Shown: in pieces, positions 25,110-56,937 of the stretch
Numbering within the stretch: position 1 is the stretch's first letter
Layout of the letters: each line of letters starts with the position of its first letter
Assembly: GCA_965215115.1 (NCBI GenBank)
Contig: OZ244050.1
Coordinates: 2,062,323-2,126,322 of the forward strand
DNA from: Saprospiraceae bacterium
GTDB lineage: Bacteria > Bacteroidota > Bacteroidia > Chitinophagales > Saprospiraceae
Direction of reading: 5' to 3'
DNA: 64,000 nt
Translations under genes and position numbers: made by a program
The notes under the pieces: generated by a model
Database searches by the model: none
Seen by the model: the letters and a program-made list of their open reading frames with translations, nothing else
Told to the model about the DNA's origin: nothing

Positions 25110-25158
25110 AGGAACAGTTACACAAGTTTGCAATTCTAAGCGGTGGTTTGTAATTTTC

Positions 25159-39490: not shown

Positions 39491-40558
39491 GTGACAAACG
39501 CCCCCGCCACCTTCCTCCACCGCATATCCTATGAGTCCGCTGCTTCAGAGGCGCTGCTTGCCGCGAACTACCTGCCCGTCGGACATGGCCAACTTGGCGC
39601 AGCCGCCTACTTGGCAGACGCCGACGATTGGACCGCCTTCGAAACAGTATATCGCGAGACGTACAGCGGCGCCATTGATCGGCAGCGGCATCAGCTCTGG
39701 CGCTACCTCGTCGGGATGCAGCGCCGCAGTCGGGTAGTTGTCCCGAGGCGCGGGTCGCTCGACGTTTACGAGATCATTGGAGAGGTGGCACTCCCGCGGG
39801 CGCAATGGCCAGCCGAACTCGAGGCCCTGGTCGCCTCGTCGGCCGGTGAGGATGTTGACCTCGGCTACGTCTGGCACGTGAAGCTCGTCGAGTCCAGTAT
39901 CGATCGCGCGACCCACATCACCGACGATGTACGTCGCAGGCTAAAGTTCCGTGGAACGACGGCCGACATTTCTGATCTCTCGGAGGCCGTCGAGCAGGGC
40001 ATACAGAACAAGCGGAACAATGTGACCGTCGGCCTCAGCCAAAGCACGGTAGATCACTTAGTAGAGTTGCTCGCCAAGGCCTTCGATAGTGGACTCTCCG
40101 ACATAGCTTTCGAAGAACTCATCGAGCGATACTTCAGGGCCATAGGCGCGGACCAAGACCCGGAGGCGACCAAAGTCTACTCCAAGCGTGACAAGTACGG
40201 GGGCACCGAGAAGAGTGGGGACATCGATGTCATCGCCACGTTTTCGCGGTTGCGCACGAAGTACGTCGTGCAGGCGAAGAAGCATTCCGCTAAGACGGAC
40301 GCGACAGCCGTTGCTCAAATTCGGTCATATTTGAGAAGCCCTGAGGCGGAAGGCTTTCGACAGGAGATCGATAAGGAGGACTTTGCTTTCACGCTCGTGC
40401 CTTGGGTAATATCAACGGGTGATGGGTTTAGCCCAGACGCTATAAAGTCAGCAGCGCTAGGGCTCGGAACCGACAGTCAAGATATGATCCGCGTACACCT
40501 GATCGACGGGAAGGCCTTCGCTAGGATGTTGCTGGAGGCTGGGGTCGGGGTGCTGTAA
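39491..40558 (+). CDS. Mrr-like restriction endonuclease with an unassigned ~190-aa N-terminal domain
   Basis: 355 aa, GTG start. C-terminal Mrr_cat-type PD-(D/E)xK pattern (FEELIERYF...GDIDVIATFSRLRTKYVVQAKKH). Confidence 0.65.
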   Translation: MTNAPATFLHRISYESAASEALLAANYLPVGHGQLGAAAYLADADDWTAFETVYRETYSGAIDRQRHQLWRYLVGMQRRSRVVVPRRGSLDVYEIIGEVALPRAQWPAELEALVASSAGEDVDLGYVWHVKLVESSIDRATHITDDVRRRLKFRGTTADISDLSEAVEQGIQNKRNNVTVGLSQSTVDHLVELLAKAFDSGLSDIAFEELIERYFRAIGADQDPEATKVYSKRDKYGGTEKSGDIDVIATFSRLRTKYVVQAKKHSAKTDATAVAQIRSYLRSPEAEGFRQEIDKEDFAFTLVPWVISTGDGFSPDAIKSAALGLGTDSQDMIRVHLIDGKAFARMLLEAGVGVL

Positions 40559-40700
40559 ATAGGTTTTCAACCTATTGAACACCGCGTGATCGTAACATAG
40601 AAAACAATTGAAATCAGCCATCGAATGATCGAAGTAGTTTAGCCTGGTTTACGAAGAAACCAAATATTTTTACTTGATGGGCCATCATACAACGCTACAA

Positions 40701-40994
40701 CTAACTTCTTCTCATTCTCTCCCCTAGCCAGGCCATGGTGTCGCCGAAGACCTTGGCGTGTGCCTCGTGTTTGAGTTGCGTCGTCAAGATCTCTCGGTCG
40801 TCCCCGAGTTGCCGGCGCTCGAATTCGATTAAGTCGATGTCATCGTAATGCATCGTCACCAACCTAACATAATGATCAGCGAGGGCGTGGGGCGGCATGT
40901 CGTCGCTAACGCAAAACAAGTTAGTCTTGCGGTGGTCAACCTTAGCCGGGACTTCGCTTACGTGCACGATATTCTTGCTTCTGAATCCAAACAT
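40701..40994 (-). CDS. Hypothetical small protein
   Basis: 97-aa ORF in a lower-GC stretch. No similarity recognised. Confidence 0.3.
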   Translation of the reverse strand: MFGFRSKNIVHVSEVPAKVDHRKTNLFCVSDDMPPHALADHYVRLVTMHYDDIDLIEFERRQLGDDREILTTQLKHEAHAKVFGDTMAWLGERMRRS

Positions 40995-41161
40995 ACCTGA
41001 ACATTTATGGTGTGGACCTATTTATTGTAAGCTCTTCAGTCAATACGCTTGTCGCGTCTTATATGTTACGATTATAAAAAAATATCCGGATTGGCTTACC
41101 TAGTGGCCATAATCTGCACGTGCAGAACGCTTCGGGCCTCCCGCCCCGTACCTTGCCTCTC

Positions 41162-41668
41162 ATGAATCTGGACCTCGCCGCCGCCCGCGCCTTCCGCCCC
41201 GCCTCGATCGCGCTCACCGGCAATACCGCCAGAGACCGCCACCCCACCTTCGATGTCGGAGAGTTCCTCCCGCCGGAGGTGGGCGACTCAATCGAGGTCG
41301 CGCGCCTCGTGCTCGCGTCCACCACCGGAGACGTAGTGAGCATCCGGGCCACGCGCACGACGAACGGCTACGCCATCGACGTCTACGACGAGTACACCGC
41401 GGAGTACGAATACGGCTTCGAGGGCTACCGACGGGACTACGCCCAGATCCCGACGCAGGGCGAGATGATCGATCTCCTCACCGCAATGACCGTCGAGGAG
41501 GTGGCCATGTCGCCCGGGCAGCCGTACGTGCAAGCGGTGCTTGAGAACAACGAATTGTCGAGTATCGAGGAGGCGCTGGCGTTTCTACGAATCGACTCGC
41601 GACTGTACCCAGAGTTGAATAGTCTACTGCGAGCGTTTTTGGTGCAGGAGGGACTAAGCGCTGTGTAA
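41162..41668 (+). CDS. Hypothetical protein upstream of the helicase operon
   Basis: 168 aa from the internal ATG of ORF 41120..41668, with GC-rich codon usage. No domain recognised. Confidence 0.4.
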   Translation: MNLDLAAARAFRPASIALTGNTARDRHPTFDVGEFLPPEVGDSIEVARLVLASTTGDVVSIRATRTTNGYAIDVYDEYTAEYEYGFEGYRRDYAQIPTQGEMIDLLTAMTVEEVAMSPGQPYVQAVLENNELSSIEEALAFLRIDSRLYPELNSLLRAFLVQEGLSAV

Positions 41669-41802: not shown

Positions 41803-44800
41803 ATGAACATCTTCCACACCCACCGGCGCATCGTCGCCGAGTACAAGCGCTACCTCGAGAGCTTCATCCACGTGCAGGACGAACTCATCGCCGCGCACAT
41901 CCAGGAGGCACTCGACGCCGGGAAGCTCTTTCCCGATCCGCTGATTCAGTTCAATCCGAGCTTCGCGTACGGGCCTTCGCTCGCGGAACTCGTCGCGGAG
42001 GGGTTGCTCCACCGCACGCTCGACGACATCTTCCGGGGCTACAGCCTCTACCAGCACCAGGTGGACGCCCTGCGGCTCGGGACCAGTGGCCAGGATTTTA
42101 TCGTGACCTCGGGGACGGGCTCGGGCAAGTCGCTCACCTACATCGCAGCCATCTTCGATCGCATCCTGCGCGCGCACGACGACGGCAGCTACCGTAAGGG
42201 CGTCAAGGCGGTGATCGTGTACCCGATGAACGCGCTCATCAACTCGCAGACCGAGGAGTTTCGCAAGTACCAGCGCAACTACCTCGAGCCGTTGGCGCCC
42301 GCGTCGCTCGACCGCGAAGGGCTAGCCAAGCTTCCGCTCGACGAGCAGGTGGCCGAACTGGAACGGGCTACCGGCGCCACTTTCCCGATCTCCTTCGCGC
42401 AGTACACCGGCCAGGAAGGCGAGGCCGTGCGCGACCGCGTGAAGGCCGACCCGCCCGACATCATCCTCACCAACTACATGATGTTGGAGCTGATGATGAC
42501 GCGCCTGGCCGAGGCGCCGCTGCGAGACTCGTTCAGGGCGAGCTTGGACTTTCTGGTCTTCGACGAGCTCCACACGTACCGCGGGCGCCAGGGCTCCGAT
42601 GTGGCGATGCTTATCCGACGGATTCAAGCGTTTACCGGGCGGCCCACGCAGTGTATCGGTACCTCGGCGACGATGTCTTCCGGGGGCGATAGCCTCGACG
42701 CGCAGAAGGAGACGGTGGCCGAGGTCGGCCAGCTGATTTTCGGGAAGCCTTTCGGCAAAACGCAGGTCGTCAACGAAACTTTGACCCGCGTGACGGCTTA
42801 TCGCGACGTGGTGCCGAGTCGAGAAGAACTCTCACTCTCGCTCGACCCACAATCGATGATCGACGGGGATGAAACGCAACTCAGGAATCACCCCCTCGCG
42901 CTCTGGCTCGAAGCCGAGATTGGTTTGGAGCAGATCAGTCCCAAGTGGCTGCGGCGGCGTACGCCCGTTACGATGGAACACGTGTACGAGGTTTTGGCGG
43001 AAGCCGCCCGCGTCACGGCCGACGAAGCCGAGGCCGCTATTAAGGCCCTGCTTGCCTGGTCGGAGAAGATCAATGAGCAGCTTAAGTCGCGCGGCATCCG
43101 TCGCGCTTACTTCCCGTTCCGACTTCACCAATTCATCTCCCAGACGGGCGGAGTTTACGTGACGCTCGATCCGCCGGAGACGCGCAACATCACGCTCGAA
43201 GCGGGCTACTTCATCCAGGGCAAGAACGCTGATCGGCAACGACTTTATCAAATCGTGTTTAGCCGGGTAAGTGGGCATGAGTTTATCTGCGTCCGAAAGA
43301 AGATCAGCGATCGCCTACTTTACGCCCGCGACTTCAATGATTACACGGACGATCCGGAGGAGGAAGACCTGATTGCGGGTTATCTCATTCCCGACAATGA
43401 AGACGATCCGATCTGGAGAGACGAGTTCGCCGAGCAACTGCCCACCGCCTGGATCCGGCGCTACAAGGATGGCGTGACGCGGGTCATTCCGAAGTACCGC
43501 GCCCGTATCCCCAACGCGATTTACTACAACGCCGATGGGCGTTTTGGCGAAAGCCCCGATGGCATTCCCGACGCACAGTTCGGGTGGTTTATGCCTACCA
43601 AGCTGCTCTTCGATCCGACCTCCGGCGTCTTCTTCGACGCGAAGTCTTCCGAAGGCTCGAAGTTGATGCGGCTCGGAAATGAAGGTCGTAGTACGGCCAC
43701 GACGACACTTTCGCTCGCCGCCGTCGATGCGCTTCGACTCGGTGGCTTGCCGGACGGCGACCAGAAGCTGCTCAGCTTTACCGACAACAGGCAGGACGCC
43801 TCGCTGCAGGCCGGGCACTTCAATGATTTCGTGAGCATCGGGCGTATTCGTTCGGCTATTTACCACGCGCTGCGTTTTGCGCCGGACCACATGCTTGGCG
43901 TCGACCACATTGCCGCCGCCGTGGTGCGGGCCCTCGCGCTCGAACAGGAGGAGTACGCCCAGGTGCCGGCGCGTTTTGCGGGCAAGCGCGCAGAGAATGA
44001 GTCCGCCCTGCAGGATTACCTCACGATCCGCGTGCTACAAGACCTTAAGCGGGGTTGGCGCTACACGATGCCCAACCTCGAACAGTGCGGCCTGCTCGAC
44101 ATCGGCTACCGCTACATAGAGGCCGAGTTGGACACCGACATCTGGACGGAGCTGCCGCTGCCGATCGTGGCGCAGATGAGTGTCGACGAGCGGCGGACCT
44201 TCTTCACGCAGACGCTCGACTACATCCGCACCTCGAATGCGATCTACCACCGCTACTTCGTGGAAGACCAGGTGACGGTGGCGAACGCCATCAAGAACAA
44301 GCTCACCGGCGCCTGGACCCTCGGCGAGCAGGAGCGGCTGGAGTCGCCCAACTACATGCGCTACCAGAGTGTGGGGCGTGTCCGCAGAACGCATACCGCG
44401 AGTATGGGCAAGGCTAGTAATTGGGGGCGTTACGTTTCGCAAATTCACCAACACCAAACTGGTGAATCGCTCAGCCAGAAGGACTTCGAAGGTTTTGCCG
44501 AAAGGCTACTCGACCTGCTCAGCCAAATGGGACTGTTGCGCGCGAAAGCCATTCAGGGCGAGACCGGCGAAACGACCGCCTACATCCTCGACGCCAATGC
44601 CATAGAGTGGCGCCTGGGGAAGGGCGAAACGGTGCGGCCCGACCTCGTGCGCCGCCGCTCTTACCTCGGAGACGCCCCGACGCCCGCGCCGAATACCTAC
44701 TTCGAGGAGTTTTACCGTCGCGACTTCACCGTCCGTAAAGACCTCGTGGCCGCGGAACACACCGGGCAAGTCCAACACCAAGATCGGATTGATCGCGAAG

Positions 44801-47019
44801 AGCGCTTCCGGGCCGGCACCATCCGCGCGCTGTACTGTAGTCCCACGATGGAGCTCGGCATCGACATCGCCAACCTCAACATCGTCCACCTGCGCAACGT
44901 GCCGCCCAATCCGGCCAACTACGCGCAACGCAGCGGCCGCGCCGGGCGAAGTGGCCAGGGAGCGCTCGTGATCACATACTGCAGCCAGCTCAGCGCGCAC
45001 GACCGACACTACTTCCAGCACCCCGCCGAGATGGTGGCCGGCGTGGTAGTGGCCCCGCGGCTCAACCTTGACAACGAGGAGCTGCTCCGCTCGCACATCC
45101 AGGCGACGTACCTGCTCGAATCCGGCATCAACATCACGAAGAGCGTCACCGAGGTAATCGATCTCGAGGACGAGCAACTCGGTTTGAATGCGGATACCAA
45201 GCACAAACTGCAAGCCGGACATCGCGCACGTAGCGAGAAAGTCGTGCATCTGTTTACGGACATTTTGCAACGCGACAAGGTGTTGGCGGGTGTGCTTTCG
45301 CCAAAACAACTGGCCGCCATCGTAGACGAGTGTCCGCAGAACTTTGACCGGGCGTTTAACCGCTGGCGAGAGCTCTACCGCAACACCCTACGCCTGGCCG
45401 ACGACGCCCACCGCATTAAGACGGGCTCACTCTACGCTGCCGATTCCGACGAGCGCAAACAGGCTAATATTAACGCCCGCGTCGCCTACAAGCAGCTCGA
45501 GGAACTCAAGAACGATTACGAGCGCTACACGGGCACGCTGTCGGAGTTTTACCCCTTCCGCTACCTCGCTTCGGAAGGATTTCTGCCGGGTTACAACTTC
45601 ACGCGCCTGCCGATCCGCGCGGCCATCAACGGCTACGAATCGGCGCAATTCCTCAGTCGTCCGCGCCTGCTGGCGCTCCAGGAGTTTGGCCCGCGCAACA
45701 TCATTTACCACAACGGGCAGAGCTACGAGATCGACCGGCTCAACATCACCGATGTCGAGGGCCAGCGCGTGAGCGCAAAGGTGGCCCGGACCTCGGGCTA
45801 CATCTTGATGGGCGACGAGTTCAATCGCGAGACCGACCCGATCAACCCGAACGTCAACCTCAACTCCGGCGGCGGGACCATCCTCACCAACCTGATCGAG
45901 ATGCGCGAGACCGGCACCCGGGTGCTCAACCGCATCACGAGCGAAGAGGAGGAGCGCCGGCGCACCGGTTACGTCATCGAGACCTACTTCTCGCTGCCGC
46001 AGGGCCGCGCGGGTTGTGATACGATCTACGTCAAGTCGGCCGGAGAGACCTTGCTGGAGATCCTCTACATGCCGACGGCCAACATCGTGCAGGTCAACAA
46101 GTCGGAGCGCCGCACCGAACGCGAGCAGTTCTTAATCGACAAGACCTACGGCTACTGGAAGCGCGACACCGACGCCGACAACGACGACAAGGGCCGCATC
46201 ATCCCGGTGAGCCTCTACACCTCGATCACCACCAACGCGCTCTACATCCAGCCCACCGCCAAGCTCGGGCTCGAGGAAGATCAGGTGATCACGTTGAAGT
46301 ACGCTTTCAAGCGTGCTATCGAAGAACGCTACCAAGTCGAAGGCAACGAGATCGGCGTGACACTCATGGGTGACGGCCAGGTGGCCAACATCATGCTCTA
46401 CGAAAGTTCGGAGGGCAGCCTCGGGGTATTGAGCCAACTGGTGGCCTCGCCGCAGGAGTTCCAGGCACTCGTGCGACGCGCCTACGAGCTGTGCTACTTC
46501 GACAAGGGTGAAGACCTCAAGCCAGAACTCGGCCCCGCCACCTACAACGACCTGCTGAGCTACTATAACCAGCGCGATCACGAGGTGATCGACCGGCACC
46601 GCATCAAAGAGCCGCTGGAGGATCTGATGAAAACTACTATCGAGATCGGCGGGCGCGGCACCGTTGGCGATTACGATGCACAGTACAAACACCTGCTGGC
46701 CAACTACGACGAGTCGAGTAGCACGGAGCGGCAATTTCTCGATGGTTTGTACAAACTCGGACTGCGCCTGCCCGACGAGGCCCAACCGAGCCTGAAAGAT
46801 GTTGAAGGCCTGTACGTCACGCCCGACTTCCGCTACGACCGGCACGTGTACGTGTTCTGCGACGGTACGCCCCACGACCGTGAGGACGTGCGGGCCGACG
46901 ACCACCGCAAGCGGCGCGCGCTGCGTGACCGTGGCCTGCGCTCCATCATCTATCACTACCGCGACTCCCTTGACGATCTCGTCAAGGCGAATGCCGATGT
47001 CTTTACTTCCGTCAAATGA
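41803..47019 (+). CDS. Giant DEAD/DEAH-box helicase fused to a DUF1998-type domain and a C-terminal DUF559/Vsr-like module (DrmA+DrmB-like)
   Basis: 1738 aa. Helicase motifs TSGTGSGKS, VFDELH, GTSATM, QRSGRAGRSG. DUF1998-like block FYPFRYLASEGFLPGYNFTRLP...LYESSEGSLGVL. Tail TPDFRYDRHVYVFCDGTPHD...RRALRDRGLRSIIY. Confidence 0.85.
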   Translation: MNIFHTHRRIVAEYKRYLESFIHVQDELIAAHIQEALDAGKLFPDPLIQFNPSFAYGPSLAELVAEGLLHRTLDDIFRGYSLYQHQVDALRLGTSGQDFIVTSGTGSGKSLTYIAAIFDRILRAHDDGSYRKGVKAVIVYPMNALINSQTEEFRKYQRNYLEPLAPASLDREGLAKLPLDEQVAELERATGATFPISFAQYTGQEGEAVRDRVKADPPDIILTNYMMLELMMTRLAEAPLRDSFRASLDFLVFDELHTYRGRQGSDVAMLIRRIQAFTGRPTQCIGTSATMSSGGDSLDAQKETVAEVGQLIFGKPFGKTQVVNETLTRVTAYRDVVPSREELSLSLDPQSMIDGDETQLRNHPLALWLEAEIGLEQISPKWLRRRTPVTMEHVYEVLAEAARVTADEAEAAIKALLAWSEKINEQLKSRGIRRAYFPFRLHQFISQTGGVYVTLDPPETRNITLEAGYFIQGKNADRQRLYQIVFSRVSGHEFICVRKKISDRLLYARDFNDYTDDPEEEDLIAGYLIPDNEDDPIWRDEFAEQLPTAWIRRYKDGVTRVIPKYRARIPNAIYYNADGRFGESPDGIPDAQFGWFMPTKLLFDPTSGVFFDAKSSEGSKLMRLGNEGRSTATTTLSLAAVDALRLGGLPDGDQKLLSFTDNRQDASLQAGHFNDFVSIGRIRSAIYHALRFAPDHMLGVDHIAAAVVRALALEQEEYAQVPARFAGKRAENESALQDYLTIRVLQDLKRGWRYTMPNLEQCGLLDIGYRYIEAELDTDIWTELPLPIVAQMSVDERRTFFTQTLDYIRTSNAIYHRYFVEDQVTVANAIKNKLTGAWTLGEQERLESPNYMRYQSVGRVRRTHTASMGKASNWGRYVSQIHQHQTGESLSQKDFEGFAERLLDLLSQMGLLRAKAIQGETGETTAYILDANAIEWRLGKGETVRPDLVRRRSYLGDAPTPAPNTYFEEFYRRDFTVRKDLVAAEHTGQVQHQDRIDREERFRAGTIRALYCSPTMELGIDIANLNIVHLRNVPPNPANYAQRSGRAGRSGQGALVITYCSQLSAHDRHYFQHPAEMVAGVVVAPRLNLDNEELLRSHIQATYLLESGINITKSVTEVIDLEDEQLGLNADTKHKLQAGHRARSEKVVHLFTDILQRDKVLAGVLSPKQLAAIVDECPQNFDRAFNRWRELYRNTLRLADDAHRIKTGSLYAADSDERKQANINARVAYKQLEELKNDYERYTGTLSEFYPFRYLASEGFLPGYNFTRLPIRAAINGYESAQFLSRPRLLALQEFGPRNIIYHNGQSYEIDRLNITDVEGQRVSAKVARTSGYILMGDEFNRETDPINPNVNLNSGGGTILTNLIEMRETGTRVLNRITSEEEERRRTGYVIETYFSLPQGRAGCDTIYVKSAGETLLEILYMPTANIVQVNKSERRTEREQFLIDKTYGYWKRDTDADNDDKGRIIPVSLYTSITTNALYIQPTAKLGLEEDQVITLKYAFKRAIEERYQVEGNEIGVTLMGDGQVANIMLYESSEGSLGVLSQLVASPQEFQALVRRAYELCYFDKGEDLKPELGPATYNDLLSYYNQRDHEVIDRHRIKEPLEDLMKTTIEIGGRGTVGDYDAQYKHLLANYDESSSTERQFLDGLYKLGLRLPDEAQPSLKDVEGLYVTPDFRYDRHVYVFCDGTPHDREDVRADDHRKRRALRDRGLRSIIYHYRDSLDDLVKANADVFTSVK

Positions 47020-49940
47020 TCGACGCCAGAGAGTTCAAGCCCGGCAAACTCGTCCGGCTCCGCCGCCGCGAGTGGATCGTGCAGCCGACCGAGGACCGGG
47101 ACGTGTTGCGCATCAAACCGCTCGGCGGCGCCGAGGAGGAGACGACCGGCATCTACCTGCCCTTTGCGTTCGAGAACGAGCGCATCGAGGAGTATTACTT
47201 TCCGCTACCCGAACGCGAGGACTTCGGTGATCTGGCCAGTGCCCGGCTGCTCTACGACGCCGTGCGCCTCGGCTTTCGCGACGCCTCGGGGCCTTTCCGC
47301 TCGATTGCCAAGTTCAACTTTCAACCACGGGCCTACCAGATGGTGCCGCTCATTTTGGCCTTGCGCCAGGAAGGACCGGTGCGGCTCTTCATCGCTGACG
47401 ATGTCGGGATCGGCAAGACGATCGAGAGCCTGATGGTGGCTCGGGAGATGCTCGACCGTGGGCTCGTCAAGCGCGTTGCAGTCGTTTGCCTGCCGCACCT
47501 CTGCGAGCAGTGGCAACAGGAGATGCGCGACAAGTTCGGTTTGGAGGCGGTGATCGTGCGCAGCTCCACGGCGGCTACGCTCGATCGCAAGACCCCCGGC
47601 GACATCAGTGCTTTTGCGCACTATCCCTTCCAGGTCGTGAGCATCGACTACGTCAAGACGGCGAAGCGGATCGACAGTTTTGTGGCGGATTGCCCGGGGC
47701 TAGTAATCGTGGACGAGGTGCACACGGCCTCGGCGAGCCCGGGGGCCGGTCGGCAGCAGCGGCACCATTTGCTGCGACAGCTGAGCGAGAAGCCGAACCA
47801 GAATCTTTTGCTGCTCTCGGCCACGCCCCACAGCGGCAAGCCGGAGGAGTTCCAATCGTTGCTCGGACTCCTGGCCCCGGGGTTTGCCTGCATCGAGATC
47901 GGTAAAGCGACCGACGCGGAGCGCCGCCGTTTGGCTGCCCACTACGTGCAGCGGCGGCGCAAGGATATCGAGCGTTGGGAGGGCGATAAGCTCAAGGAGA
48001 CGAAGCTTACTTTCCCGAAGCGCGATCCTAGAGAGGTGGCCTATCCTATGAGTCCGGAGTACCTACAGCTTCAGTACGACGTGATGCGGCTTGCGCAAAA
48101 ACTCGCGACCAAGGATGAGTCTAAGACGCAGCGTAAGCGGCTCAATTACTGGACGGCGCTGGGCTTGTTGCGTGGGGTGATGAGTAGTCCGGCGGCGGGG
48201 ATTACGATGCTGAATAATCGGGCGCGGAAGGTGGCCGAGGATGACGACGACGAGGGCGGCTATGAAAGTGCCGACGGTGATGGCGAACGTCAAGAATCAG
48301 ACGCCGCCACCCTACTCGCCGAGGCCAACGACAATCCCGTGATCGAAAACGATTTCGACTGGGGGCGCGACCTGGAGCCGGAACTCTACGAGACCGAAAC
48401 CGGCGAGAGCACTACGCTGCGCAAGCACCGCCACGAGTTGTCGAGCCAACTCCAGCACATTCACAAAGAAGGGCTCGACCTGAAGGTGAAGGCGCTCGTC
48501 ACGCTCGTGAAGCAATGGCACAAGGACGGCTTCTCGCCCATCGTCTACTGCCGCTACATCCGCACGGCCGAGTACGTGGGGCAGGTTTTGGCGAAAGCCT
48601 TCCCGAAAAAGGTGGGCATCGCGACCGTCACCAGCAAGGTGCCCGACGAGGAGCGACAGGCGGCCGTCGACAAACTCGGCGACCACGAGCTGCGCGTGCT
48701 GGTGGCCACCGATTGTATGAGCGAGGGCATCAACCTCCAGCGCTACTTCACGGCCATCATCCACTACGATCTGCCGTGGAACCCGAACCGCCTCGAACAG
48801 CGCGAGGGCCGCGTGGATCGCTTCGGCCAGACGGCCCCCGTCGTGCGCACGGCGCTGCTCTACGGCGAGGACAATCCCATGGACGGCATCGTGCTCAAGG
48901 TGCTGCTCCGTAAGGCGCGCGAGATCAAGCGGGCCATTGGGGTGAGCGTCCCGTTTCCGGAAAACAACCAGAGCATCATGGACGCCGTCACGCAGGCGGT
49001 GTTGCTGAAGGCGCCACCCTCGCCCGGCGGGATGCAACTCGGCATCTTCGACCAACTGGCCGAGGTCAACGAGAAGGCGGCCGAGGTGGAGATTGCCTAC
49101 AGACGCATCGAAGAGGTCGAGGTGGCCACGCGCAGCATCTTCGCGCAATACGCCGTCAAGGCCCAGGATATCGACCAAGACCTCGCCGACGCCATCCGCC
49201 TCATCGGCGACATGGACAGCGTCGAGCAGTTCGTGCTGCGCGCCGTGACGCACCTGGGCGGCAACTACAAGCCGCGCAAAGGCGGCTACCGCATCGAGCG
49301 GGAGGGTATGCCGGTGGGCGTCGATCACCTCTTCGGTGACGGCAAGAACCTCGACGTGAGTTTCGCGACGCCTACCCCAGAGGGCTTCCGCTACGTGGCG
49401 CGCAATCATCCGCTGGTGGACAGCCTCAGCCAGGTGCTTATGTCGGAAGCGATGGCGGAGGCCGATGGTGAGTTGCCGCTTTCGCAAAACCGCGTCCGCC
49501 GCACGGCCGTCGTCCGCACCGCCGCCGTGACGCGCACCACGACGCTGTTGCTGTTGCGCGTGCGCAATGTGATCGAGCGCACGGATATGAATCGCCAGCA
49601 GTTGGTAGCCGAGGAGCTGATGCTCAAAGGCTACCGCGGCACGCCGCCCGACCTGGAGTGGCTGCCCGAGGAGGAGAGCCTGGCCCTGCTCCAAACCGAG
49701 GCCAGCGCCGAGGTGGCCGCCGTCGAGAAGCGCGAGGCCATCGACGATGCACTCAATGATTACACGGCGCTCAAGGACGTGCTGAACGGGTTCGGGCGCG
49801 AGCAGGCCGAGCGCCTCGTCGAGGCCCACGATCGCTTCCGGGCCGCCGTCAAGGGGCCGCGCCGCTACCAGGTGGTCGAGCCCATCCTGCCCATGGACCT
49901 GATGGGCGTCTACGTCTTCATCCCCGATCGCACGCAGTAA
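47016..49940 (+). CDS. SNF2-family helicase (DrmD-like)
   Basis: 974 aa. Motifs ADDVGIGKTIE, VIVDEVHTAS, LLLSATPHSGK, QREGRVDRFGQ. ATGA overlap with the upstream gene. Confidence 0.85.
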   Translation: MIDAREFKPGKLVRLRRREWIVQPTEDRDVLRIKPLGGAEEETTGIYLPFAFENERIEEYYFPLPEREDFGDLASARLLYDAVRLGFRDASGPFRSIAKFNFQPRAYQMVPLILALRQEGPVRLFIADDVGIGKTIESLMVAREMLDRGLVKRVAVVCLPHLCEQWQQEMRDKFGLEAVIVRSSTAATLDRKTPGDISAFAHYPFQVVSIDYVKTAKRIDSFVADCPGLVIVDEVHTASASPGAGRQQRHHLLRQLSEKPNQNLLLLSATPHSGKPEEFQSLLGLLAPGFACIEIGKATDAERRRLAAHYVQRRRKDIERWEGDKLKETKLTFPKRDPREVAYPMSPEYLQLQYDVMRLAQKLATKDESKTQRKRLNYWTALGLLRGVMSSPAAGITMLNNRARKVAEDDDDEGGYESADGDGERQESDAATLLAEANDNPVIENDFDWGRDLEPELYETETGESTTLRKHRHELSSQLQHIHKEGLDLKVKALVTLVKQWHKDGFSPIVYCRYIRTAEYVGQVLAKAFPKKVGIATVTSKVPDEERQAAVDKLGDHELRVLVATDCMSEGINLQRYFTAIIHYDLPWNPNRLEQREGRVDRFGQTAPVVRTALLYGEDNPMDGIVLKVLLRKAREIKRAIGVSVPFPENNQSIMDAVTQAVLLKAPPSPGGMQLGIFDQLAEVNEKAAEVEIAYRRIEEVEVATRSIFAQYAVKAQDIDQDLADAIRLIGDMDSVEQFVLRAVTHLGGNYKPRKGGYRIEREGMPVGVDHLFGDGKNLDVSFATPTPEGFRYVARNHPLVDSLSQVLMSEAMAEADGELPLSQNRVRRTAVVRTAAVTRTTTLLLLRVRNVIERTDMNRQQLVAEELMLKGYRGTPPDLEWLPEEESLALLQTEASAEVAAVEKREAIDDALNDYTALKDVLNGFGREQAERLVEAHDRFRAAVKGPRRYQVVEPILPMDLMGVYVFIPDRTQ

Positions 49941-52900
49941 TGGCCACGAAGTTCCCGTCCGTCACCCTCCAGGGCAACATCCTCACCTTCGAGGCGCTCG
50001 AGAAGATCGCCGCCGGCAAAGACGATGGCGATATGCCGCGGCAGACGGCGCGCGAGTACGGTTTCGCGAGTGAGCAAGAGCTGCGCAGCGAGATTCAGGG
50101 GCAGTGGGCTGTCGCCAAAACCCAGTACACCGCTTTCCAGCAGCAGGTCGAGCGATTAAAGGATTCTGAGCCCGGTACCACCAAAACTCGGAGCGGTTGG
50201 ATGATACCGCTACTCAGTTTGTTGGGCCACGATCTGCGCTACCAGGCCAAGGCGCAAGAGATCGACGGGCGGGCGTACGCCATTAGCCACGTGGCTAGTG
50301 CGACCGCCGAAACAGGTTTTGGCGAAATCGAAGATTCGCGCAAGCAAAGCCGCAAAACCGACGCCCCGAGCACCAACTTCCCCGTGCACATCGTCGGCGC
50401 CAACCAAAGCCTCGACCGCCGGGGCGAGGGCATGCGCATGAGTCCGCACGCCCTGGTGCAGGAATTTCTCAATCGTCACGAGAGCCTCTACGCCATCGTC
50501 ACCAACGGCAAGTCGCTGCGCCTGCTGCGCGACAGCGCCAACCTCACCAAACTGAGCTACGTCGAGTTTGATTTGACGCGACTGTTCGGCGAGGACCTCT
50601 TCACCGACTTCGCGCTGCTCTATCGCCTGCTGCACATCAGTCGCCTGCCGGAGGAGCCGACTGCCGGGGCGGACAGTATCCTGGAGAAGTATCACCAGGA
50701 GGCGCTGAAGTCCGGGTCGCGCATCCGGAGCAAACTCAGTGAGGCCGTCGAGCGGGGCATCGTGATGCTGGCCAACGGGCTGCTCGCCAATGCGGACAAC
50801 CACGCCCTGCGGCAGTGGGCCGCCGAGCAGCCGGACGCGCCGGCCGCCTACTACGAGGCGCTGCTGAAGCTCATCTACCGCCTGCTGTTCGTGATGGTGA
50901 TCGAGGAGCGCGACCTCATCTTCCCACCGCCCGAGACCCGGGCAGACGATGGGCTAGACGGCCTGCGCGGCCCGCAGCCGATGGCCCACCGCGACGTGTA
51001 CTACCAGTTTTACTCGCTGAAGCGCCTGCGTGGCCTGGCCCTCAACCACCGCCTCGCCAACGCGCGCGAGTACGACCTGTGGGAGAGCTTGCGCAACACC
51101 TTCGCGCTGTTTGAGCCCGGGGGTACCGGCGCCAAACTCGGTATTGGCCCGCTGGCAGGGAGTCTGTTCGGGACGCAGGCGCTGAGCGCCTTGCAGGGCG
51201 GGCGCGTCAACAACCGCGTGCTGCTGGAGTGCCTACGGGGCCTTAGCCAGTTTGACAATGGCCAGGGCGGCGTGATGCCGGTCAACTACGCGAGTCTCGA
51301 CGTGGAGGAGTTCGGTTCGGTGTACGAGGGCCTGTTGGAGTACGCACCGCACATCGACCCGAAAACGCTGGAGTTCCGGTTTGTCAAGGGCCAGGACCGC
51401 AGCAGCAGCGGTAGCCACTACACGCCTGACGAGTTGGTGCAGCCGCTCATCAAACATAGTCTCGAGCACCTGATCGCGGATCGGACGGTGGCCCCGGATG
51501 CGGCCGAGCCTAAACGCGAGGCCGCGATTCAGCAACTGCTGCAACTCAAGGTGACCGACGTGACCTGCGGCAGCGGCCACATCTTGCTAGCGGCAGCGCG
51601 ACGCATCGGCCTGGAAGTCTCGCGCCTGCGCAGCCAGGAGGAGCAGCCCAATCCCATGGCCATTCGCGAGGGCACCCGCGACGCCATCCAGCGCTGCATC
51701 TACGGGGTCGACCGCAATCCGCTGGCCGTCGAACTTTGCAAGGTGGCGCTCTGGCTGGAGGCGCATGTCCCGGGCCGTCCGCTCGGCTTTCTCGACCACC
51801 GCATCAAGTGCGGCGACGCGATCGTGGGCGTGGGTCACCTCGAAGACTTGCAGAAGGGTATTCCGACGGAGGCTTTCAAAACGTTCACTTCAGAAGAGAA
51901 GTCACTTGGGGCAGCATTACGCAAGCGTAACCAGAAGGAGCGCAAGGACCGGGAAGCTCGGGTCGGGGGAGATTACCAGACGAATTTGTTAAGCGAGCAA
52001 TTTAGCGTCAAAGACCGTTTGGCCGCCTTTCGGCAAAACTTCGCCCGTTTTGCCGAGATGCCCGAGCGCACGGTGGCGGAGATTGAGGAGAAGGAGGCGG
52101 CGTACAGGAAGTTGAGCCAGGGCAGTAACTGGTGGTTTATCAAAACCCTGTGTGACGTGCAGATCGCGCAGTTTTTTATTCCGAAGACGGATGATAAGCG
52201 GGTGGTGACAGACAGTCGGTTTTTTGAGATGATGCGTGGGGCAAGGGATACGCAGGCGGAAGGTGCGGCGGTGTCGGAGAGCAGTGAGCGACGCTTTTTT
52301 CACTGGTTTTTGGAATTTCCGGAGGTGTTTGCGGGGGGGGGCTTTGATTGTGTGTTGGGGAATCCGCCTTTTTTGGGGGGGCTAAAAATTCCCGACAAAA
52401 TTGATGAAATTGCACACGAATACTTACAAAGTATGTTTCATGCATCTGGAAGAGCAGATTTAGTCTCCTACTTTTTTCGCAGGACATACACCCTTATCGG
52501 ATCTGCTGGTAAAATTAGTCTCTTAGCGACTAATACGATCTCCCAAGGTGACACTCGAATCGCAGGACTTCAGAGCATATTAAAGCTTGGTGGAGTAATT
52601 AACTTTGCCATACCCTCAATAGTATGGCCAGGAGCCGCAGAAGTAAGAGTTGCGAGCGTATCACTTTCAACTAAATCCGGCGCTTCAGCCAAGAAATATA
52701 TAGGTTCATCAGAAGTCACATTCATTAGCAGCTATCTTGATTCCGCGCCGGAGTTACATCCATACAAGATCAAAAGTAACAAAAATGAATCCTTTCAAGG
52801 TGACAACGTTGCAGGATTAGGGTTCTCTATTACCCGATCAGAGGTCAAAACTATGATTGAGTCGGATCCGAAAAATGAGCAGGTTTTATTTCCATACATC

Positions 52901-54526
52901 GACGGAGACACTCTCAACAAATCTCCAGAAATGGTGACTGAAAACTACATAATAAGCTTCGGAGAACGTACAGAATCCGATGCTATTTCGTTTAAAGAGC
53001 CGTATAGAAAGTTGATAAAAGATGTTTACCCGGAAAGACAAACAAAAAATGCGAAAAAGTATCCAAGAATGGTATATGAATGGTGGAAGTTCTGGAATTA
53101 TCGAAAAGAACTACACCGACAGCTCGATAATCTGGATGAAGTACTGTGTGTTGCGAGAGTGAGCAGAACACTAGCTTTTGCGGTGGTAAATGCTAAGCAA
53201 GTATTCCACGAGAAGCTTGTGGTGATGACTCGTTCGCTTGATGAAACATTTCCTGTATTACAATCAGACTTCCACAACTACTGGGCTTGGAAGTATTGTA
53301 CAACAATGAAAGATGATTTGACATATACTTCTAGCGCGATCTATCAGACATTTCCGTTTCCAGAAGCAAATTTGTTCAAACTTGTAGAATCTGGCTGCTT
53401 TTTTAGGTCTAAGAGACGCGAAGACCTATTGCTTCTAAGTTTAGGTCTGACAAAACTCTACAACCAATTCCACAACGCCCACCTCACCACCGATTACGAC
53501 ACCCTCTGGTCCGACGGCACCCTCACCATTGCCCCCGCCGAACTCAAAAAGCGCAAGCAGAGCAAGGAGACTTACAACCTCTACCGCCACCTCGACAAAA
53601 CGCCCGGTACGATCTCTATGGGCGAGGCCGTCGAGCGCATCGCCGAGTTGCGGCGCCTCCACAAGGAGATGGACCAGGCCGTGCTGGCGGCCTACGGCTG
53701 GGATAAACCCGGCAGGTACTGGGGTCCGGCCATCCGGCTGCGGCACGACTTCCACGAGGTGGACTACCTGCCCGACAACGATAATGTGCGCTACACCATC
53801 CACCCGGAGGCCCGGCGGGAGGTGCTCAAGCGGCTGCTGCTGCTCAATCACGAGATCCATGCGGCCGAGGTGCGGGGCGTGGAGTATGAGGTGGTGCGAG
53901 GAGAGAAGATCCGGCAGTTGATGCGCGAACAGGTGGAGGCGCTCTACCCCTATGTTGATCGCCTCCACGAGCGGACGGTCACCTTCCTCTCCTCGGCCGA
54001 GGAGTCTTTTGCCGGCGTGGAGCAGACCTTGGCGAAGAGCTACAAGGGCTACGTCTCCGAGCTGTCGAGTGCGTTGGAGAATGAGTTGGCCGAGCGGGTG
54101 TTCGTGGCTTTTGATGCGGAATTTCAGGGGCGGTACCGCAAGGAGGACGGGACGCGCGAGGCTTACCTAGACGCACAGGCGGCCATTGATCCGCAGAAAC
54201 TGGGTAAGTTTACGGGGCTGCTCAAGAAGCGCAGCACGAAATACGAGTTGGGGACGATGGAGTACTTGCTGTCGCTGGTGTATAAGGAGACCGGCTCGAC
54301 GCTGCGGTCGAGTGAGTTGCTACAGGACTTTCGGGCGTTTGTGCTGCGCGAAGTTGGGATTGGGGTTTTGGATCGGGGCTTTTTGGATGAGTTGAAGGGC
54401 TATGCTGCTAGGTATCGCAATGAGGCGGTGCATTTGGGGGAGGTGAGTAAGGTTGAGGCGGAGGCTTGTCGGGAGGTGGTGCTGGGGTTGTTGGGGGTGG
54501 TGGCTAATCAGCACTTGTCACGTTAG
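49940..54526 (+). CDS. Large N6-adenine DNA methyltransferase, Eco57I/type IIG-like architecture (DrmMI-like)
   Basis: 1528 aa. SAM motif VTDVTCGSGHILLAAA, catalytic GNPPF (52361-52372), C-terminal LRRLHKEMDQAVLAAYGW block. TAATG overlap with the SNF2 gene. Confidence 0.9.
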   Translation: MATKFPSVTLQGNILTFEALEKIAAGKDDGDMPRQTAREYGFASEQELRSEIQGQWAVAKTQYTAFQQQVERLKDSEPGTTKTRSGWMIPLLSLLGHDLRYQAKAQEIDGRAYAISHVASATAETGFGEIEDSRKQSRKTDAPSTNFPVHIVGANQSLDRRGEGMRMSPHALVQEFLNRHESLYAIVTNGKSLRLLRDSANLTKLSYVEFDLTRLFGEDLFTDFALLYRLLHISRLPEEPTAGADSILEKYHQEALKSGSRIRSKLSEAVERGIVMLANGLLANADNHALRQWAAEQPDAPAAYYEALLKLIYRLLFVMVIEERDLIFPPPETRADDGLDGLRGPQPMAHRDVYYQFYSLKRLRGLALNHRLANAREYDLWESLRNTFALFEPGGTGAKLGIGPLAGSLFGTQALSALQGGRVNNRVLLECLRGLSQFDNGQGGVMPVNYASLDVEEFGSVYEGLLEYAPHIDPKTLEFRFVKGQDRSSSGSHYTPDELVQPLIKHSLEHLIADRTVAPDAAEPKREAAIQQLLQLKVTDVTCGSGHILLAAARRIGLEVSRLRSQEEQPNPMAIREGTRDAIQRCIYGVDRNPLAVELCKVALWLEAHVPGRPLGFLDHRIKCGDAIVGVGHLEDLQKGIPTEAFKTFTSEEKSLGAALRKRNQKERKDREARVGGDYQTNLLSEQFSVKDRLAAFRQNFARFAEMPERTVAEIEEKEAAYRKLSQGSNWWFIKTLCDVQIAQFFIPKTDDKRVVTDSRFFEMMRGARDTQAEGAAVSESSERRFFHWFLEFPEVFAGGGFDCVLGNPPFLGGLKIPDKIDEIAHEYLQSMFHASGRADLVSYFFRRTYTLIGSAGKISLLATNTISQGDTRIAGLQSILKLGGVINFAIPSIVWPGAAEVRVASVSLSTKSGASAKKYIGSSEVTFISSYLDSAPELHPYKIKSNKNESFQGDNVAGLGFSITRSEVKTMIESDPKNEQVLFPYIDGDTLNKSPEMVTENYIISFGERTESDAISFKEPYRKLIKDVYPERQTKNAKKYPRMVYEWWKFWNYRKELHRQLDNLDEVLCVARVSRTLAFAVVNAKQVFHEKLVVMTRSLDETFPVLQSDFHNYWAWKYCTTMKDDLTYTSSAIYQTFPFPEANLFKLVESGCFFRSKRREDLLLLSLGLTKLYNQFHNAHLTTDYDTLWSDGTLTIAPAELKKRKQSKETYNLYRHLDKTPGTISMGEAVERIAELRRLHKEMDQAVLAAYGWDKPGRYWGPAIRLRHDFHEVDYLPDNDNVRYTIHPEARREVLKRLLLLNHEIHAAEVRGVEYEVVRGEKIRQLMREQVEALYPYVDRLHERTVTFLSSAEESFAGVEQTLAKSYKGYVSELSSALENELAERVFVAFDAEFQGRYRKEDGTREAYLDAQAAIDPQKLGKFTGLLKKRSTKYELGTMEYLLSLVYKETGSTLRSSELLQDFRAFVLREVGIGVLDRGFLDELKGYAARYRNEAVHLGEVSKVEAEACREVVLGLLGVVANQHLSR

Positions 54527-56153
54527 CATATCTCTTCCGGAGATCAGCCGACAATTTTTCTAATGATGCATCTTGACTAGAAAAGATTGGTTCAGAGGAT
54601 CGTGAGTTTGTTGGAAATGCAGACTTGTATGTGAGGGACGGTGCTTTGCGATATAGTTCACCTGCTGTAATTATGCGTAGTGGCGCAACGCTGTGCGAAT
54701 GATTGAACTTAGGCACTTGATACTCATCTCCTATAAGCTTCGTCCAAAGGTTATCAATAACACTGTGAGTGTGAAGCGACTCTAGCCATTCGCCCATGAC
54801 CACTAGACAGGGATAGATGATTAGCTTTTGCTTTGGCACAAGCAACCGCTTTGCTTTGTAAAGTACTGGTAGCCAGTCGATGCTTTTCTTCAGCTGCAGC
54901 AGTCCAACTGCTTCGTCAAATGGAACTTTATCGTTATCTTGCTTAAAAAGCTCATCAAAGGAAGTTCCGTACTCCTGGCTGTCTATCCAGCCAATTTGTT
55001 TTACTTGTCCAATGATGCACCTGTTCTGCTGATGGATGGTAAAATCTGCGAGTTCATCTCCTGAATTCGGGAGACTCTGCAAATCAGGCTTTCCTAAATA
55101 GGCGCGATTGAAGCGATTTGTTTTATTAATCAGATTAGCGAAGCAATCACCGACGAAAGCTTCAAGCTCATCGCCCTTGAATTTGCCTAGATCATCGGGC
55201 TGTACTCCCAAATTCTTTAACTTCGACCAGTAATATTGATCGATCAATCCAGACGAAAGATATTGAAACAAGCTAGGATAATCTGATATAACCTGCCCCG
55301 TTAAGTGCTCATTGACTTTCCCAGCGTCCACAACGGGCATCGATCTTATTAGACCTAAGCCCCGTACAGTGATAGCATTACTCTTAGCTCTAGCGATAAC
55401 TTCCTCGCAATCGAGACCCATCTTCAGATTAGAGTAAATATCTGTGTTCGAGAATGGATTTGGCCATTTTCTCGCATCAAAAGTGAATTTAAAATAATGG
55501 TTGTAAAACTCTTGCATGTTAGTGATGCTTGTTGTCGATGCTAGATAGTTCTCAATACCTAACGGGGTCCCCTTCTTTGCCTTACGCTCCAAGACGCCTA
55601 CGCGGTCTATCAAATGCTTTCCAAAAGCCAAATGGAAAGATTCATCTATTTTAGCATTATAAATATCAGATATAAGCCCTCTTATATTCAGACTTATTTC
55701 TGTTTGCCCAAGACTCGACGCGACAACATCGCTTTGATTTTGTATGCTAGTCTCGGCCTCAATAATGAGTGAGTAAATATCTACTTCAAATTGAATCGTT
55801 CTGTAAGACTCGTAAGTCTCTCGTTCAGGCAACCCGGATATGGCGTTAATATAGTTGCTGGCCGCTCTAATGCATCCACCACGAGACCATGGGAGATAGA
55901 CCGCGTTCATTTCTTCGCGCAGACGGTTCAAAGTCTCGGCTATTTCGGGGTATATGTTTGGAAATAGCTCGTTTAGCTTAGGATCATAAACACCTTCGCT
56001 GTAGTTGCCGTAGTTGATCATTGCGTGCACCCAGTTGCACGAAAATAGCCTCGCTAGTACTTCACGCGGGTCATACTCCCAGAGCAAATCAGATTGCACA
56101 AACTGAGGAAAATCTTTGGTGCTCGGCAGCCCCCGCAGTCGAATAGTCGTCAT
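54504..56153 (-). CDS. AT-rich hypothetical protein, candidate PD-(D/E)xK nuclease
   Basis: 549-aa ORF is the only long frame in the AT-rich block. Weak nuclease-like pattern GDELADFTIHQQNRCIIGQVKQ. Last gene of the minus-strand TcmP/DUF5131 operon. Confidence 0.5.
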   Translation of the reverse strand: MTTIRLRGLPSTKDFPQFVQSDLLWEYDPREVLARLFSCNWVHAMINYGNYSEGVYDPKLNELFPNIYPEIAETLNRLREEMNAVYLPWSRGGCIRAASNYINAISGLPERETYESYRTIQFEVDIYSLIIEAETSIQNQSDVVASSLGQTEISLNIRGLISDIYNAKIDESFHLAFGKHLIDRVGVLERKAKKGTPLGIENYLASTTSITNMQEFYNHYFKFTFDARKWPNPFSNTDIYSNLKMGLDCEEVIARAKSNAITVRGLGLIRSMPVVDAGKVNEHLTGQVISDYPSLFQYLSSGLIDQYYWSKLKNLGVQPDDLGKFKGDELEAFVGDCFANLINKTNRFNRAYLGKPDLQSLPNSGDELADFTIHQQNRCIIGQVKQIGWIDSQEYGTSFDELFKQDNDKVPFDEAVGLLQLKKSIDWLPVLYKAKRLLVPKQKLIIYPCLVVMGEWLESLHTHSVIDNLWTKLIGDEYQVPKFNHSHSVAPLRIITAGELYRKAPSLTYKSAFPTNSRSSEPIFSSQDASLEKLSADLRKRYANVTSAD

Positions 56154-56172: not shown

Positions 56173-56937
56173 TCAAGCGCCTATTGAATCTCCAACAGAA
56201 GCTACGCCATGAGATATTGGCATCTCCCCCCACTCCCGTCCCGCCAATACCCGCCCGTTCGCCTTCTTCGAGCGCCGCTGGCCATCCTGTCCGTACGTAC
56301 CCCACTGCTTAAAGAAGAAAGCCACGTTTTGGCGCAAGCACTCATCCCGCACCCCCTCCGCCCAACCGGATGACATCGGCCTAGCCTTGACGCCGCTCTC
56401 CCCGCCGACGATGACCCAGTGGATGCCGTCGAGGTTTAGGTCTCCCAATCCCTCGAGCAGAGGCTCGCAGGAAAGGAAGCGGGTGCGGGCCGGTACCTCG
56501 CGGAGGGCCTCGATGCGGTGCAGCGTACGTCGGTCTTCGACGGAGGTCCCGAGCCAGGCGTTTTCAGGTACGACGCGAGTGGTGAAGTAGGCGACCATGC
56601 GTTCAGGTCGCTTGGTGAGGATTTGATACGTGTGACGAGGGGTATCCCGGATGGTGGCGAAGACGGCATCGAGGTGCTCTTCGGTCGCGCGCTCGTGGAA
56701 GAGGTCACTCATCGAGTTTACGAAATAGAGCGTGGGCTTGCGCACCTGGCGTGGGCCGTCGACTCGGCCGGCGTGCTCGCGGAAGGCGAAGCCGTCTTCG
56801 TAGCCGGGCGTCCCCATGGCCTGCAGACGCTTGGCCATGACAGCGGCGTAGCACTCGCGGCAGCCGGCGGAAAGTTTCGTACAGCCAGTTGATGGATTCC
56901 AGGTGGACTCGGTCCATTCGATGGCGGAGGTGCTCAT
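56173..56937 (-). CDS. DUF5131 (phage Gp37/Gp68 family) three-Cys protein
   Basis: 254 aa. N-terminus IEWTESTWNPSTGCTKLSAGCRECYA is the family signature, including the Cys triad. Confidence 0.85.
   Translation of the reverse strand: MSTSAIEWTESTWNPSTGCTKLSAGCRECYAAVMAKRLQAMGTPGYEDGFAFREHAGRVDGPRQVRKPTLYFVNSMSDLFHERATEEHLDAVFATIRDTPRHTYQILTKRPERMVAYFTTRVVPENAWLGTSVEDRRTLHRIEALREVPARTRFLSCEPLLEGLGDLNLDGIHWVIVGGESGVKARPMSSGWAEGVRDECLRQNVAFFFKQWGTYGQDGQRRSKKANGRVLAGREWGEMPISHGVASVGDSIGA

Follow-up and report, generated by a model that had tools for sequence, protein, structure and literature searches.

A three-gene helicase-nuclease, SNF2 ATPase, and adenine methylase operon in a Saprospiraceae genome as a probable ARMADA type I system

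A 64,000-nucleotide stretch of a Saprospiraceae bacterium genome (contig OZ244050.1 of assembly GCA_965215115.1, positions 2,062,323 to 2,126,322; hereafter the window) contains three large consecutive genes, encoding a giant DExH helicase, an SNF2 helicase, and an N6-adenine methyltransferase, and raises the question of which defence system these genes represent. The original prediction, made from the sequence alone, described a DISARM-like operon in which DrmA and DrmB were fused, the PLD nuclease gene was missing, and a different nuclease-like fold was appended to the fusion; with reference to Druantia DruE, it allowed for a hybrid or new subtype. On the basis of the comparisons described below, we consider it very likely that the three genes make up an anti-phage system of ARMADA type I. 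ARMADA was named by Bell et al. (bioRxiv 10.1101/2025.09.15.676423, September 2025) as a 'missing link' between DISARM and Druantia, so the sequence-only reader had arrived at the same idea as was published in 2025. The intermediate position and the DruE-like helicase were correctly recognised, but the system had already been described: the window operon is a typical copy of it and not a new DISARM subtype, and this false lead is removed.

The operon and its relatives

The three genes are given here with their ARMADA names.

41803..47019, plus strand: armC, first gene of the operon, encoding a 1738-aa YprA/DruE-like DExH helicase-nuclease (open reading frame (ORF), Pfam, PADLOC, homologues)
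47016..49940, plus strand: armA, encoding a 974-aa SNF2 ATPase that is RapA/BrxHII/DrmD-like (ORF, Pfam, PADLOC, NCBIfam, PDB)
49940..54526, plus strand: armB, encoding a 1528-aa N6-adenine DNA methyltransferase that is PglX/DrmMI/MmeI-like, with a target recognition domain (TRD) and a variable C-terminal extension (ORF, Pfam, PADLOC, PDB)

All three are intact and translationally coupled, the armC stop overlapping the armA start in ATGA (47016-47019) and the armA stop overlapping the armB start in TAATG (49938-49942); their number, strand, lengths, and overlaps were present as first claimed. Scans for promoters and terminators returned a number of sites no higher than chance. The gene order is that given by Bell et al. 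for type I, namely a YprA/DruE-like helicase with a fused Vsr domain, a BrxHII-like helicase, and a PglX-like methylase. We found more than 8000 homologues of ArmC, the best 120 being full-length proteins of 1686-1820 aa with 43-64% identity (E = 0), a result well outside anything chance would give. The proteins MCX6170646.1, HPI89404.1, and NQV36814.1 are 44-45% identical to ArmC at 100% coverage and are entered as 'ARMADA Type I helicase' in the accessible portion of Table S1 of Bell et al. The catalytic residues of ArmC, ArmA, and ArmB are invariant across the aligned homologues, and ArmA K134/D233, ArmC K109/D254, and the NPPF motif of ArmB correspond to type II residues whose mutation kills protection.

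The operon is also preserved as a unit. Of the 12 related loci whose sequence continues beyond the helicase gene, 11 have a homologue of armA directly downstream of it, and a homologue of armB is present in every related locus long enough to show one. The helicase gene is followed by the SNF2 gene and then by the methylase gene in Flavobacterium frigoris, Schleiferia thermophila, an 8-Mb genome, one metagenome-assembled genome (MAG) of Ignavibacteriales, and MAGs from Sphingobacteriales and other Bacteroidota. The methylase gene is located upstream of the helicase gene in locus L014 and in the Chloroflexi locus L015, an occasional extra gene (e.g., Fic) interrupts related loci, and two contigs from Nitrospiraceae stop within the SNF2 gene, leaving the methylase region beyond the contig. 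No PLD gene was present in the related loci compared, nor was a PLD domain found in the window among ORFs of at least 150 aa scanned between 34570 and 60765, which agrees with the absence first noted. Pfam, NCBIfam, and PADLOC scans of the neighbours revealed no UvrD/GajB-like fourth gene near the operon, and for this reason we place it in type I rather than type II.

This conservation bears on whether the locus could comprise two independent adjacent systems, a solo Druantia-like helicase-nuclease and a BREX- or type IIG-like methylase with an SNF2 partner. The best PADLOC matches of ArmC are DruE models, and ArmB resembles MmeI and PglX, as would fit such an arrangement. In addition, the gene for a Cys-containing ARMADA-like helicase in a Saprospiraceae MAG (L008, 874-6018) is followed over the 10 kb downstream by glycosyltransferase and type IX secretion system-related genes, and neither an SNF2 nor a methylase gene lies there. 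The upstream side of that helicase gene is, however, cut by the contig end. In the window the three genes overlap at their starts and stops, their adjacency and order are kept across phyla, and the match of a metagenome contig described below to the operon begins at the armC start codon and continues uninterrupted into armA, the upstream flank of that contig being unrelated. No neighbouring ORF matches any model of the Druantia partners DruH, DruA-D, or DruM/F/G, and all genes are essential in ARMADA type II. We therefore judge a pair of unrelated systems to be very improbable and retain the single ARMADA type I operon as the preferred reading.

Families and domains of the encoded proteins

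The following regions were delimited in ArmC.

42052..42678, plus strand: RecA1 lobe, ArmC residues 84-292, with Walker A GTGSGKS (K109) and DELH (D254) (Pfam DEAD)
42685..44727, plus strand: insert of ∼680 aa between RecA1 and RecA2, with helical, beta-rich, and winged-helix-like domains (AlphaFold, PADLOC)
44737..45102, plus strand: core of the RecA2 lobe, ArmC residues ∼979-1100, its start taken from Pfam Helicase_C and its end estimated from a run of invariant residues through H1098, with no search delimiting it
45535..46602, plus strand: modelled OB-CON-DUF1998 'canopy' module, ArmC residues ∼1245-1600, without zinc cysteines (Foldseek, Pfam MZB)
46660..47016, plus strand: predicted Vsr-type nuclease domain of the PD-(D/E)xK superfamily, ArmC residues ∼1620-1738, a candidate effector (hhalign, Foldseek, invariant residues)

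Judged by its sequence, ArmC is DruE-like and not DrmA-like. Pfam identified DEAD at residues 84-292 (E 3.1e-21) and Helicase_C at residues 979-1051 (E 5.7e-14), and the residues of the RecA1 motifs are invariant in the 120 homologues. In PADLOC, the scores were 285 bits for DruE3, 194-247 bits for DruE1/DruE2, and 73-78 bits for DpdJ models, compared with 37-40 bits for DrmA models, the latter confined to the generic Helicase_C region. The PDB sequence relatives begin with the giant helicases 9tu7 (2108 aa, E 1.3e-46), which we infer to be DruE, and 9wae, followed by YprA/MrfA (6znp); Lhr was also matched, and DrmA was absent among the best 60 of the 82 PDB sequence matches.

The ∼680-aa insert (residues 295-985) was modelled by AlphaFold with a pLDDT (predicted local distance difference test) of 88.9. 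A fold search with this model returned weak PadR/MarR-type matches alone (probability ≤0.57), and the PADLOC matches of the insert were weak, colinear, and to DruE models only. It occupies the place of the array of BrxA-like, beta-barrel zinc-binding, and MarR-like modules found in ARMADA and Druantia helicases; Bell et al. regard the RecA-lobe insert as a mark of the defence branch.

The AlphaFold model of residues 1225-1738 (pLDDT 87) matched MrfA (6znp_A; Foldseek E 6.6e-9, probability 1.0) and the DrmB subunit of the DrmAB complex (7s9v_B; E 1.1e-4, probability 0.99), and because of these two matches we conclude that, in the model, an OB-CON-DUF1998 canopy forms a fusion with the helicase core. 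The DUF1998-type block claimed for this protein is in this way confirmed as a fold, but it has lost the zinc cysteines, and their replacement accounts for the sub-threshold Pfam MZB (DUF1998) match (20.8 bits, cut-off 24.2). The peptides quoted for the block (YLASEGFLPGYNFTRLP and ESSEGSLGVL) and for the C-terminal module (PDFRYDRHVYVFCDGTPHD...RRALRDRGLRSIIY) were all found in the ArmC translation.

The second protein, ArmA, has the Pfam domains SNF2-rel_dom and Helicase_C, as expected for the SNF2 helicase that had been proposed, with a Walker A motif GIGKT (K134) and a DEVH motif (D233). Its top PDB relative is RapA. In PADLOC it matched PDLC02853 ('DpdE') with 548 bits over its full length and DrmD with 293 bits; in NCBIfam it scored 326 bits against DISARM_DrmD (cut-off 610) and 183 bits against DpdE (cut-off 500). 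The PADLOC match to 'DpdE' reflects the common SNF2 family. A Dpd-like (7-deazaguanine) or BRIGADE-like modification-restriction cluster, to which this match and the DpdJ scores of ArmC would lend themselves, is almost inconceivable in our view: the ORFs scanned ∼7 kb either side of the operon contained no match to tRNA-guanine transglycosylase (DpdA), preQ0/7-deazaguanine synthesis, or PLD families, the NCBIfam DpdE score is far under its cut-off, and the modification enzyme of the operon is an N6-adenine methylase with an NPPF motif.

That enzyme, ArmB, has the Pfam domains Eco57I, MmeI_Mtase, and MmeI_TRD, with motif I TCGSGH at residues 542-547 and motif IV GNPPF at residues 807-811 (NPPF 808-811), bearing out the predicted GNPPF methyltransferase. 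It scored 684 bits against PADLOC DrmMI and ∼30 bits against the NCBIfam PglX models (cut-offs 400-900), and its top PDB relative is MmeI. The match to MmeI_N (17.7 bits, cut-off 27) covers the non-catalytic part of that profile only, and no (D/E)xK motif was seen among the invariant residues of the ArmB homologues. Taken together, profile searches of the kind first suggested recovered the SNF2, methyltransferase, and DruE families and no DUF559, with DUF1998 below threshold.

These assignments also address the proposal of a new class 1 DISARM subtype in which DrmA and DrmB became fused, DrmC was lost, and another nuclease was appended. The DrmD and DrmMI matches of ArmA and ArmB and the structural match of the canopy to DrmB are in its favour, and the families of the second and third proteins are indeed common with class 1 DISARM. 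The helicase is not DrmA-like, however: its 285 bits for DruE3 stand against 40 bits for DrmA, DrmA is missing from the best 60 of the 82 PDB matches, and its C-terminal 514 residues gave no DrmB match (and no DruE match) in PADLOC. The NCBIfam DrmD score of ArmA likewise lies under the cut-off. According to Bell et al., the fused helicase-OB-CON-DUF1998 state is usual in the YprA family, DISARM being the split exception, and their tree groups ARMADA with Druantia and not with DISARM. To speak of fused DrmA and DrmB is consequently misleading, and a DISARM subtype is improbable; ARMADA type I accounts for the same families.

Several tests point to a Vsr-type nuclease domain at the ArmC C-terminus. 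The last ∼120 residues of the model have the arrangement helix-helix-strands-helix-strand, and Foldseek matched them to the Vsr-like homing endonuclease I-Bth0305I (3r3p_B; probability 0.84, TMt 0.55, E 0.3), so that the structure prediction proposed for this module returned the kind of fold that was expected. When a profile of 25 homologues was compared with E. coli Vsr using hhalign, the catalytic residues were in register (E 5.6e-4), E1642 pairing with Vsr E25, D1675 with the catalytic D51, and VFCDG with IFTHG; the Vsr sequence used was matched to known residue numbers. Residues E1642, Q1661, D1675, D1687, G1688, H1691, D1692, D1700, and R1704 are invariant in the 120 homologues. Pfam found neither DUF559 nor Vsr in the isolated C-terminal 152 residues, and a sequence profile of the domain searched against the PDB gave chance matches only, with no Vsr. 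Although weak singly, the positive tests agree, and we predict from sequence and model that the C-terminus is a Vsr-type nuclease domain. Bell et al. reported an HHpred match to Vsr (E 3.9e-5) for a representative ARMADA I helicase and describe the domain as 'predicted active' in their text and as "active?" in their Table S2; in both ARMADA types, a Vsr-type nuclease ends the helicase and replaces the PLD nuclease of DISARM.

Doubt had been raised about the activity of this module on the grounds that ArmC reads FCDG where DUF559 proteins carry a catalytic Glu. E. coli Vsr itself has Phe at this position (FTHG). The Phe is the Vsr state and thus provides no argument against nuclease activity, and with the Asp, His, and Asp residues invariant the doubt is largely resolved; the domain is presumably an active nuclease.

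A notable feature of the window ArmC is the loss of its zinc cysteines. Bell et al. stress CxxC modules in the beta-barrel and OB inserts together with a Cys4 DUF1998 cluster, and treat these as typical of the defensive branch, a common feature and not a definition. The window ArmC has nine cysteines and zero CxxC motifs. In the alignment, the beta-barrel zinc-ribbon site (CxxC...CxxC) reads S487, S490, D604, and S607; the OB-insert site reads A1328, S1331, D1345, and N1348; and the Cys positions of the DUF1998 cluster read S1380, T1580, and D1583. None of the 119 full-length homologues aligned has the Cys4 modules for zinc binding either, the DUF1998 cluster among them, and the 60 homologues that were tabulated have no CxxC at the predicted zinc sites, with scattered CxxC motifs elsewhere, mostly in the Vsr domain. 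More distant relatives at 35-36% identity (loci L005, L006, L007, L008, and L015) retain CxxC pairs in the region of residues ∼450 and ∼555 and again near ∼1280 and ∼1300; the DUF1998 region of these proteins has a further Cys pair, around residue 1550. Because all three predicted Cys4 sites are replaced and these relatives keep their cysteines, the window ArmC appears, from the alignment, to belong to a broad lineage within ARMADA type I that is zinc-free. Such a clade offers a natural experiment on whether the helicase can do without its zinc modules and the Cys4 cluster of DUF1998.

Several of these observations weigh against the ARMADA type I assignment. The zinc modules of the published ARMADA helicases (several CxxC motifs and the DUF1998 Cys4 cluster) are all missing in the window protein. 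Membership was deduced from full-length homology to listed members. The fold search did not confirm the BrxA-like and MarR-like identities of the insert domains, there being no match at E ≤0.001 and no BrxA, with 9tu7 and 9wae absent. The Vsr statistics are weak, with an hhalign probability of 30% besides the Foldseek E value of 0.3 and the missing Pfam and PDB profile matches. Lastly, the literature found holds no experiment on any ARMADA type I, type II alone having been tested.

The armB cassette, operon transfer, and surrounding genes

The composition of armB is not uniform, and one segment was delimited by composition profile and protein search.

52200..53400, plus strand: low-GC cassette in armB, ArmB residues ∼754-1153, covering motif IV (NPPF) and the TRD

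The GC content of this segment is 0.40-0.48 compared with 0.62-0.66 in the rest of armB, and it recovers after the segment. On either side of it, ArmB is 55-79% identical to its nearest relatives, whereas the best matches of the cassette are different proteins at 41-44%. The drop in GC and the change in best matches are the signature of a swapped specificity cassette, and we conclude that the segment was probably exchanged by recombination.

The operon as a whole has also moved. The metagenome contig L016 (7760-15303), which carries the closest relative, is 88% identical at the nucleotide level to the window operon from 41802 onward, the similarity starting exactly at the armC ATG and running unbroken into armA, where the contig ends. 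The L016 flanks have a GC content of 0.54, its upstream sequence is unrelated to the window, and one flanking gene encodes a Por_Secre_tail domain. Given the 88% identity that begins at the armC ATG and the unalignable upstream sequence, the comparison argues that the ARMADA operon was transferred between genomes as a cassette. The exchange of a TRD cassette and the sharp-edged transfer across GC contents illustrate how specificity and the whole system move.

A broader proposition, which we advance tentatively and hold to be rather less probable than its opposite, is that a large zinc-free ARMADA type I lineage exists in which all three predicted Cys4 sites of the helicase, among them the DUF1998 cluster that gives the family its name, have become Ser, Asp, Thr, or Asn with the operon intact and mobile, and that in this lineage a swappable ∼1.2-kb part of ArmB, comprising motif IV and the TRD, determines target specificity. 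If both parts are true, zinc binding would be dispensable for YprA-type defence helicases, and recognition of the restriction motif would reside in the methylase, as in BREX, and not in the helicase.

The genes surrounding the operon are as follows.

37401-39143, minus strand: 580-aa HIRAN-domain protein, just upstream of the operon
39491-40558, plus strand: 355-aa protein with an Mrr_cat restriction-endonuclease domain and weak PDC-S02 matches
41120-41668: 182-aa ORF
54504-56153, minus strand: 549-aa ORF with a GC content of 0.39-0.48, converging on armB and overlapping its 3' end by 23 nt
56173-58037, minus strand: pair encoding a DUF5131 protein and a protein with a GMT-like winged helix-turn-helix domain, matching PADLOC PDC-M30 (B 346 bits, A 304 bits)

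The Mrr_cat and HIRAN genes and a GC dip at 40200-41000 suggest a defence island, and the PDC-M30 match indicates that a second defence candidate adjoins ARMADA. The Mrr_cat protein, the 182-aa ORF, and the 549-aa ORF were considered as parts of the system and rejected, as none has a homologue in any related locus; lacking such counterparts, these three are not part of ARMADA. The 549-aa ORF gave no match to UvrD or any other family in Pfam, NCBIfam, or PADLOC, and is not found in the related ARMADA loci; a search of 1.84 billion representative proteins gave 7 matches, of which 3 were strong, the protein's own entry being one of these.

These surroundings are relevant to a further alternative, in which ArmC would be an MrfA/YprA-type housekeeping repair helicase beside an orphan methylase. 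The top structural match of the canopy is the repair helicase MrfA, and YprA and Lhr are among the PDB sequence matches. On the other hand, the locus is rich in defence genes (the Mrr_cat nuclease upstream, PDC-M30 downstream), transfer as a cassette between genomes is indicated, the helicase carries the ∼680-aa insert, and its gene is fixed in one operon with those of a methylase and an SNF2 ATPase. A housekeeping role has, in our estimate, only a slight chance of being correct, and the defence operon remains the reading that we adopt.

Two observations concern more distant parts of the window. The clpB gene (15757-18475, plus strand) has a frameshift near 15974-16002 that leaves its N-terminal 82 residues in a separate frame, which is either an indel error of the assembly or a pseudogene; the window ClpB is 88% identical to a Saprospiraceae MAG protein, which speaks for a Saprospiraceae-like host within Bacteroidota. 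An ORF at 15678-16238 was considered as the ClpB N-terminus and ruled out by BLASTP, the true N-terminal part being 15757-16002 in another frame. A second low-GC stretch (0.53-0.55) at 24000-28000 contains several ORFs without Pfam matches and may be further foreign DNA.

Proposed action and comparison with known systems

By analogy with characterised relatives, a scheme for the action of the system can be proposed. In E. coli, ARMADA type II confers direct protection that does not involve abortive infection; every gene is required, and so are the Walker motifs in ArmA and ArmC and the ArmB NPPW motif. The 3'-to-5' helicase DruE binds and depends on single-stranded DNA and requires its MZB domain. 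In the window system, ArmB would methylate a short motif, read by its TRD, in host DNA at N6-adenine as a self mark, and ArmB together with the ArmA translocase would recognise incoming DNA that lacks the mark. ArmC would then load on single-stranded or end-containing intermediates and translocate 3'-to-5' with ATP, and its Vsr domain would nick or cleave the DNA, such that phage is cleared directly and the cell is not killed. The self mark, the protein that reads the motif for restriction, the division of labour, and the nuclease activity of the Vsr domain are all drawn by us from these analogies.

Among the known systems, BREX shares a PglX/MmeI-type methylase and a BrxHII/RapA-like SNF2 protein with the window operon, which is without PglZ, BrxC, BrxA, BrxB, and BrxL. 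BREX defence needs PglX, a dependence that can be likened to the requirement for the methylase motif in ARMADA type II. Druantia, especially type III, provides in DruE the nearest helicase by sequence, with a RecA insert, a fused DUF1998, and a C-terminal nuclease-like domain. DruE is, however, paired with DruH (type III), DruA-D (type I), or DruM/F/G (type II) and has no SNF2 and PglX-like pair, and the nuclease domains of Druantia type III are PLD-type where that of the window protein is predicted to be Vsr-type.

Class 1 DISARM (DrmD, DrmMI, DrmA, DrmB, DrmC) has in common with the window operon the families of the SNF2 ATPase and the N6-adenine methylase and a YprA-family helicase with a DUF1998 canopy; the two probably share the logic of a methylation mark and helicase-driven attack on unmodified DNA. 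They differ in that DrmA and DrmB are separate genes accompanied by the PLD nuclease DrmC, whereas the window helicase is DruE-like with a fused canopy and a fused Vsr domain. DrmC has been reported to be dispensable for DISARM, and the absence of a PLD gene alone is therefore not decisive against a DISARM assignment. Both ARMADA and class 1 DISARM contain the BrxHII/RapA-like helicase and the PglX-like methyltransferase, as pointed out by Bell et al.

ARMADA type II (armABCD of E. coli NCTC 12900 / EDL933), the sole ARMADA with experimental phage protection, has homologous SNF2, methylase, and YprA-like helicase-Vsr proteins with closely placed motifs (ArmA K136/D236 compared with K134/D233 in the window, ArmC K110 compared with K109, and NPP[FW]). 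It differs in its gene order (armA-armB-armC-armD), in ArmD, a GajB-like UvrD helicase with a RelE-like domain that is not encoded in the window, and in an ArmC that often carries extra inactive EEP and Vsr domains, which the window protein lacks. The closest agreement is with ARMADA type I, in which the three genes and their order, the fused OB-CON-DUF1998, the C-terminal Vsr domain, and the absence of both a PLD gene and a fourth gene are the same. The window ArmC departs from it in lacking the Cys4 zinc modules, and the locus is otherwise a compact, intact three-gene example of that type.

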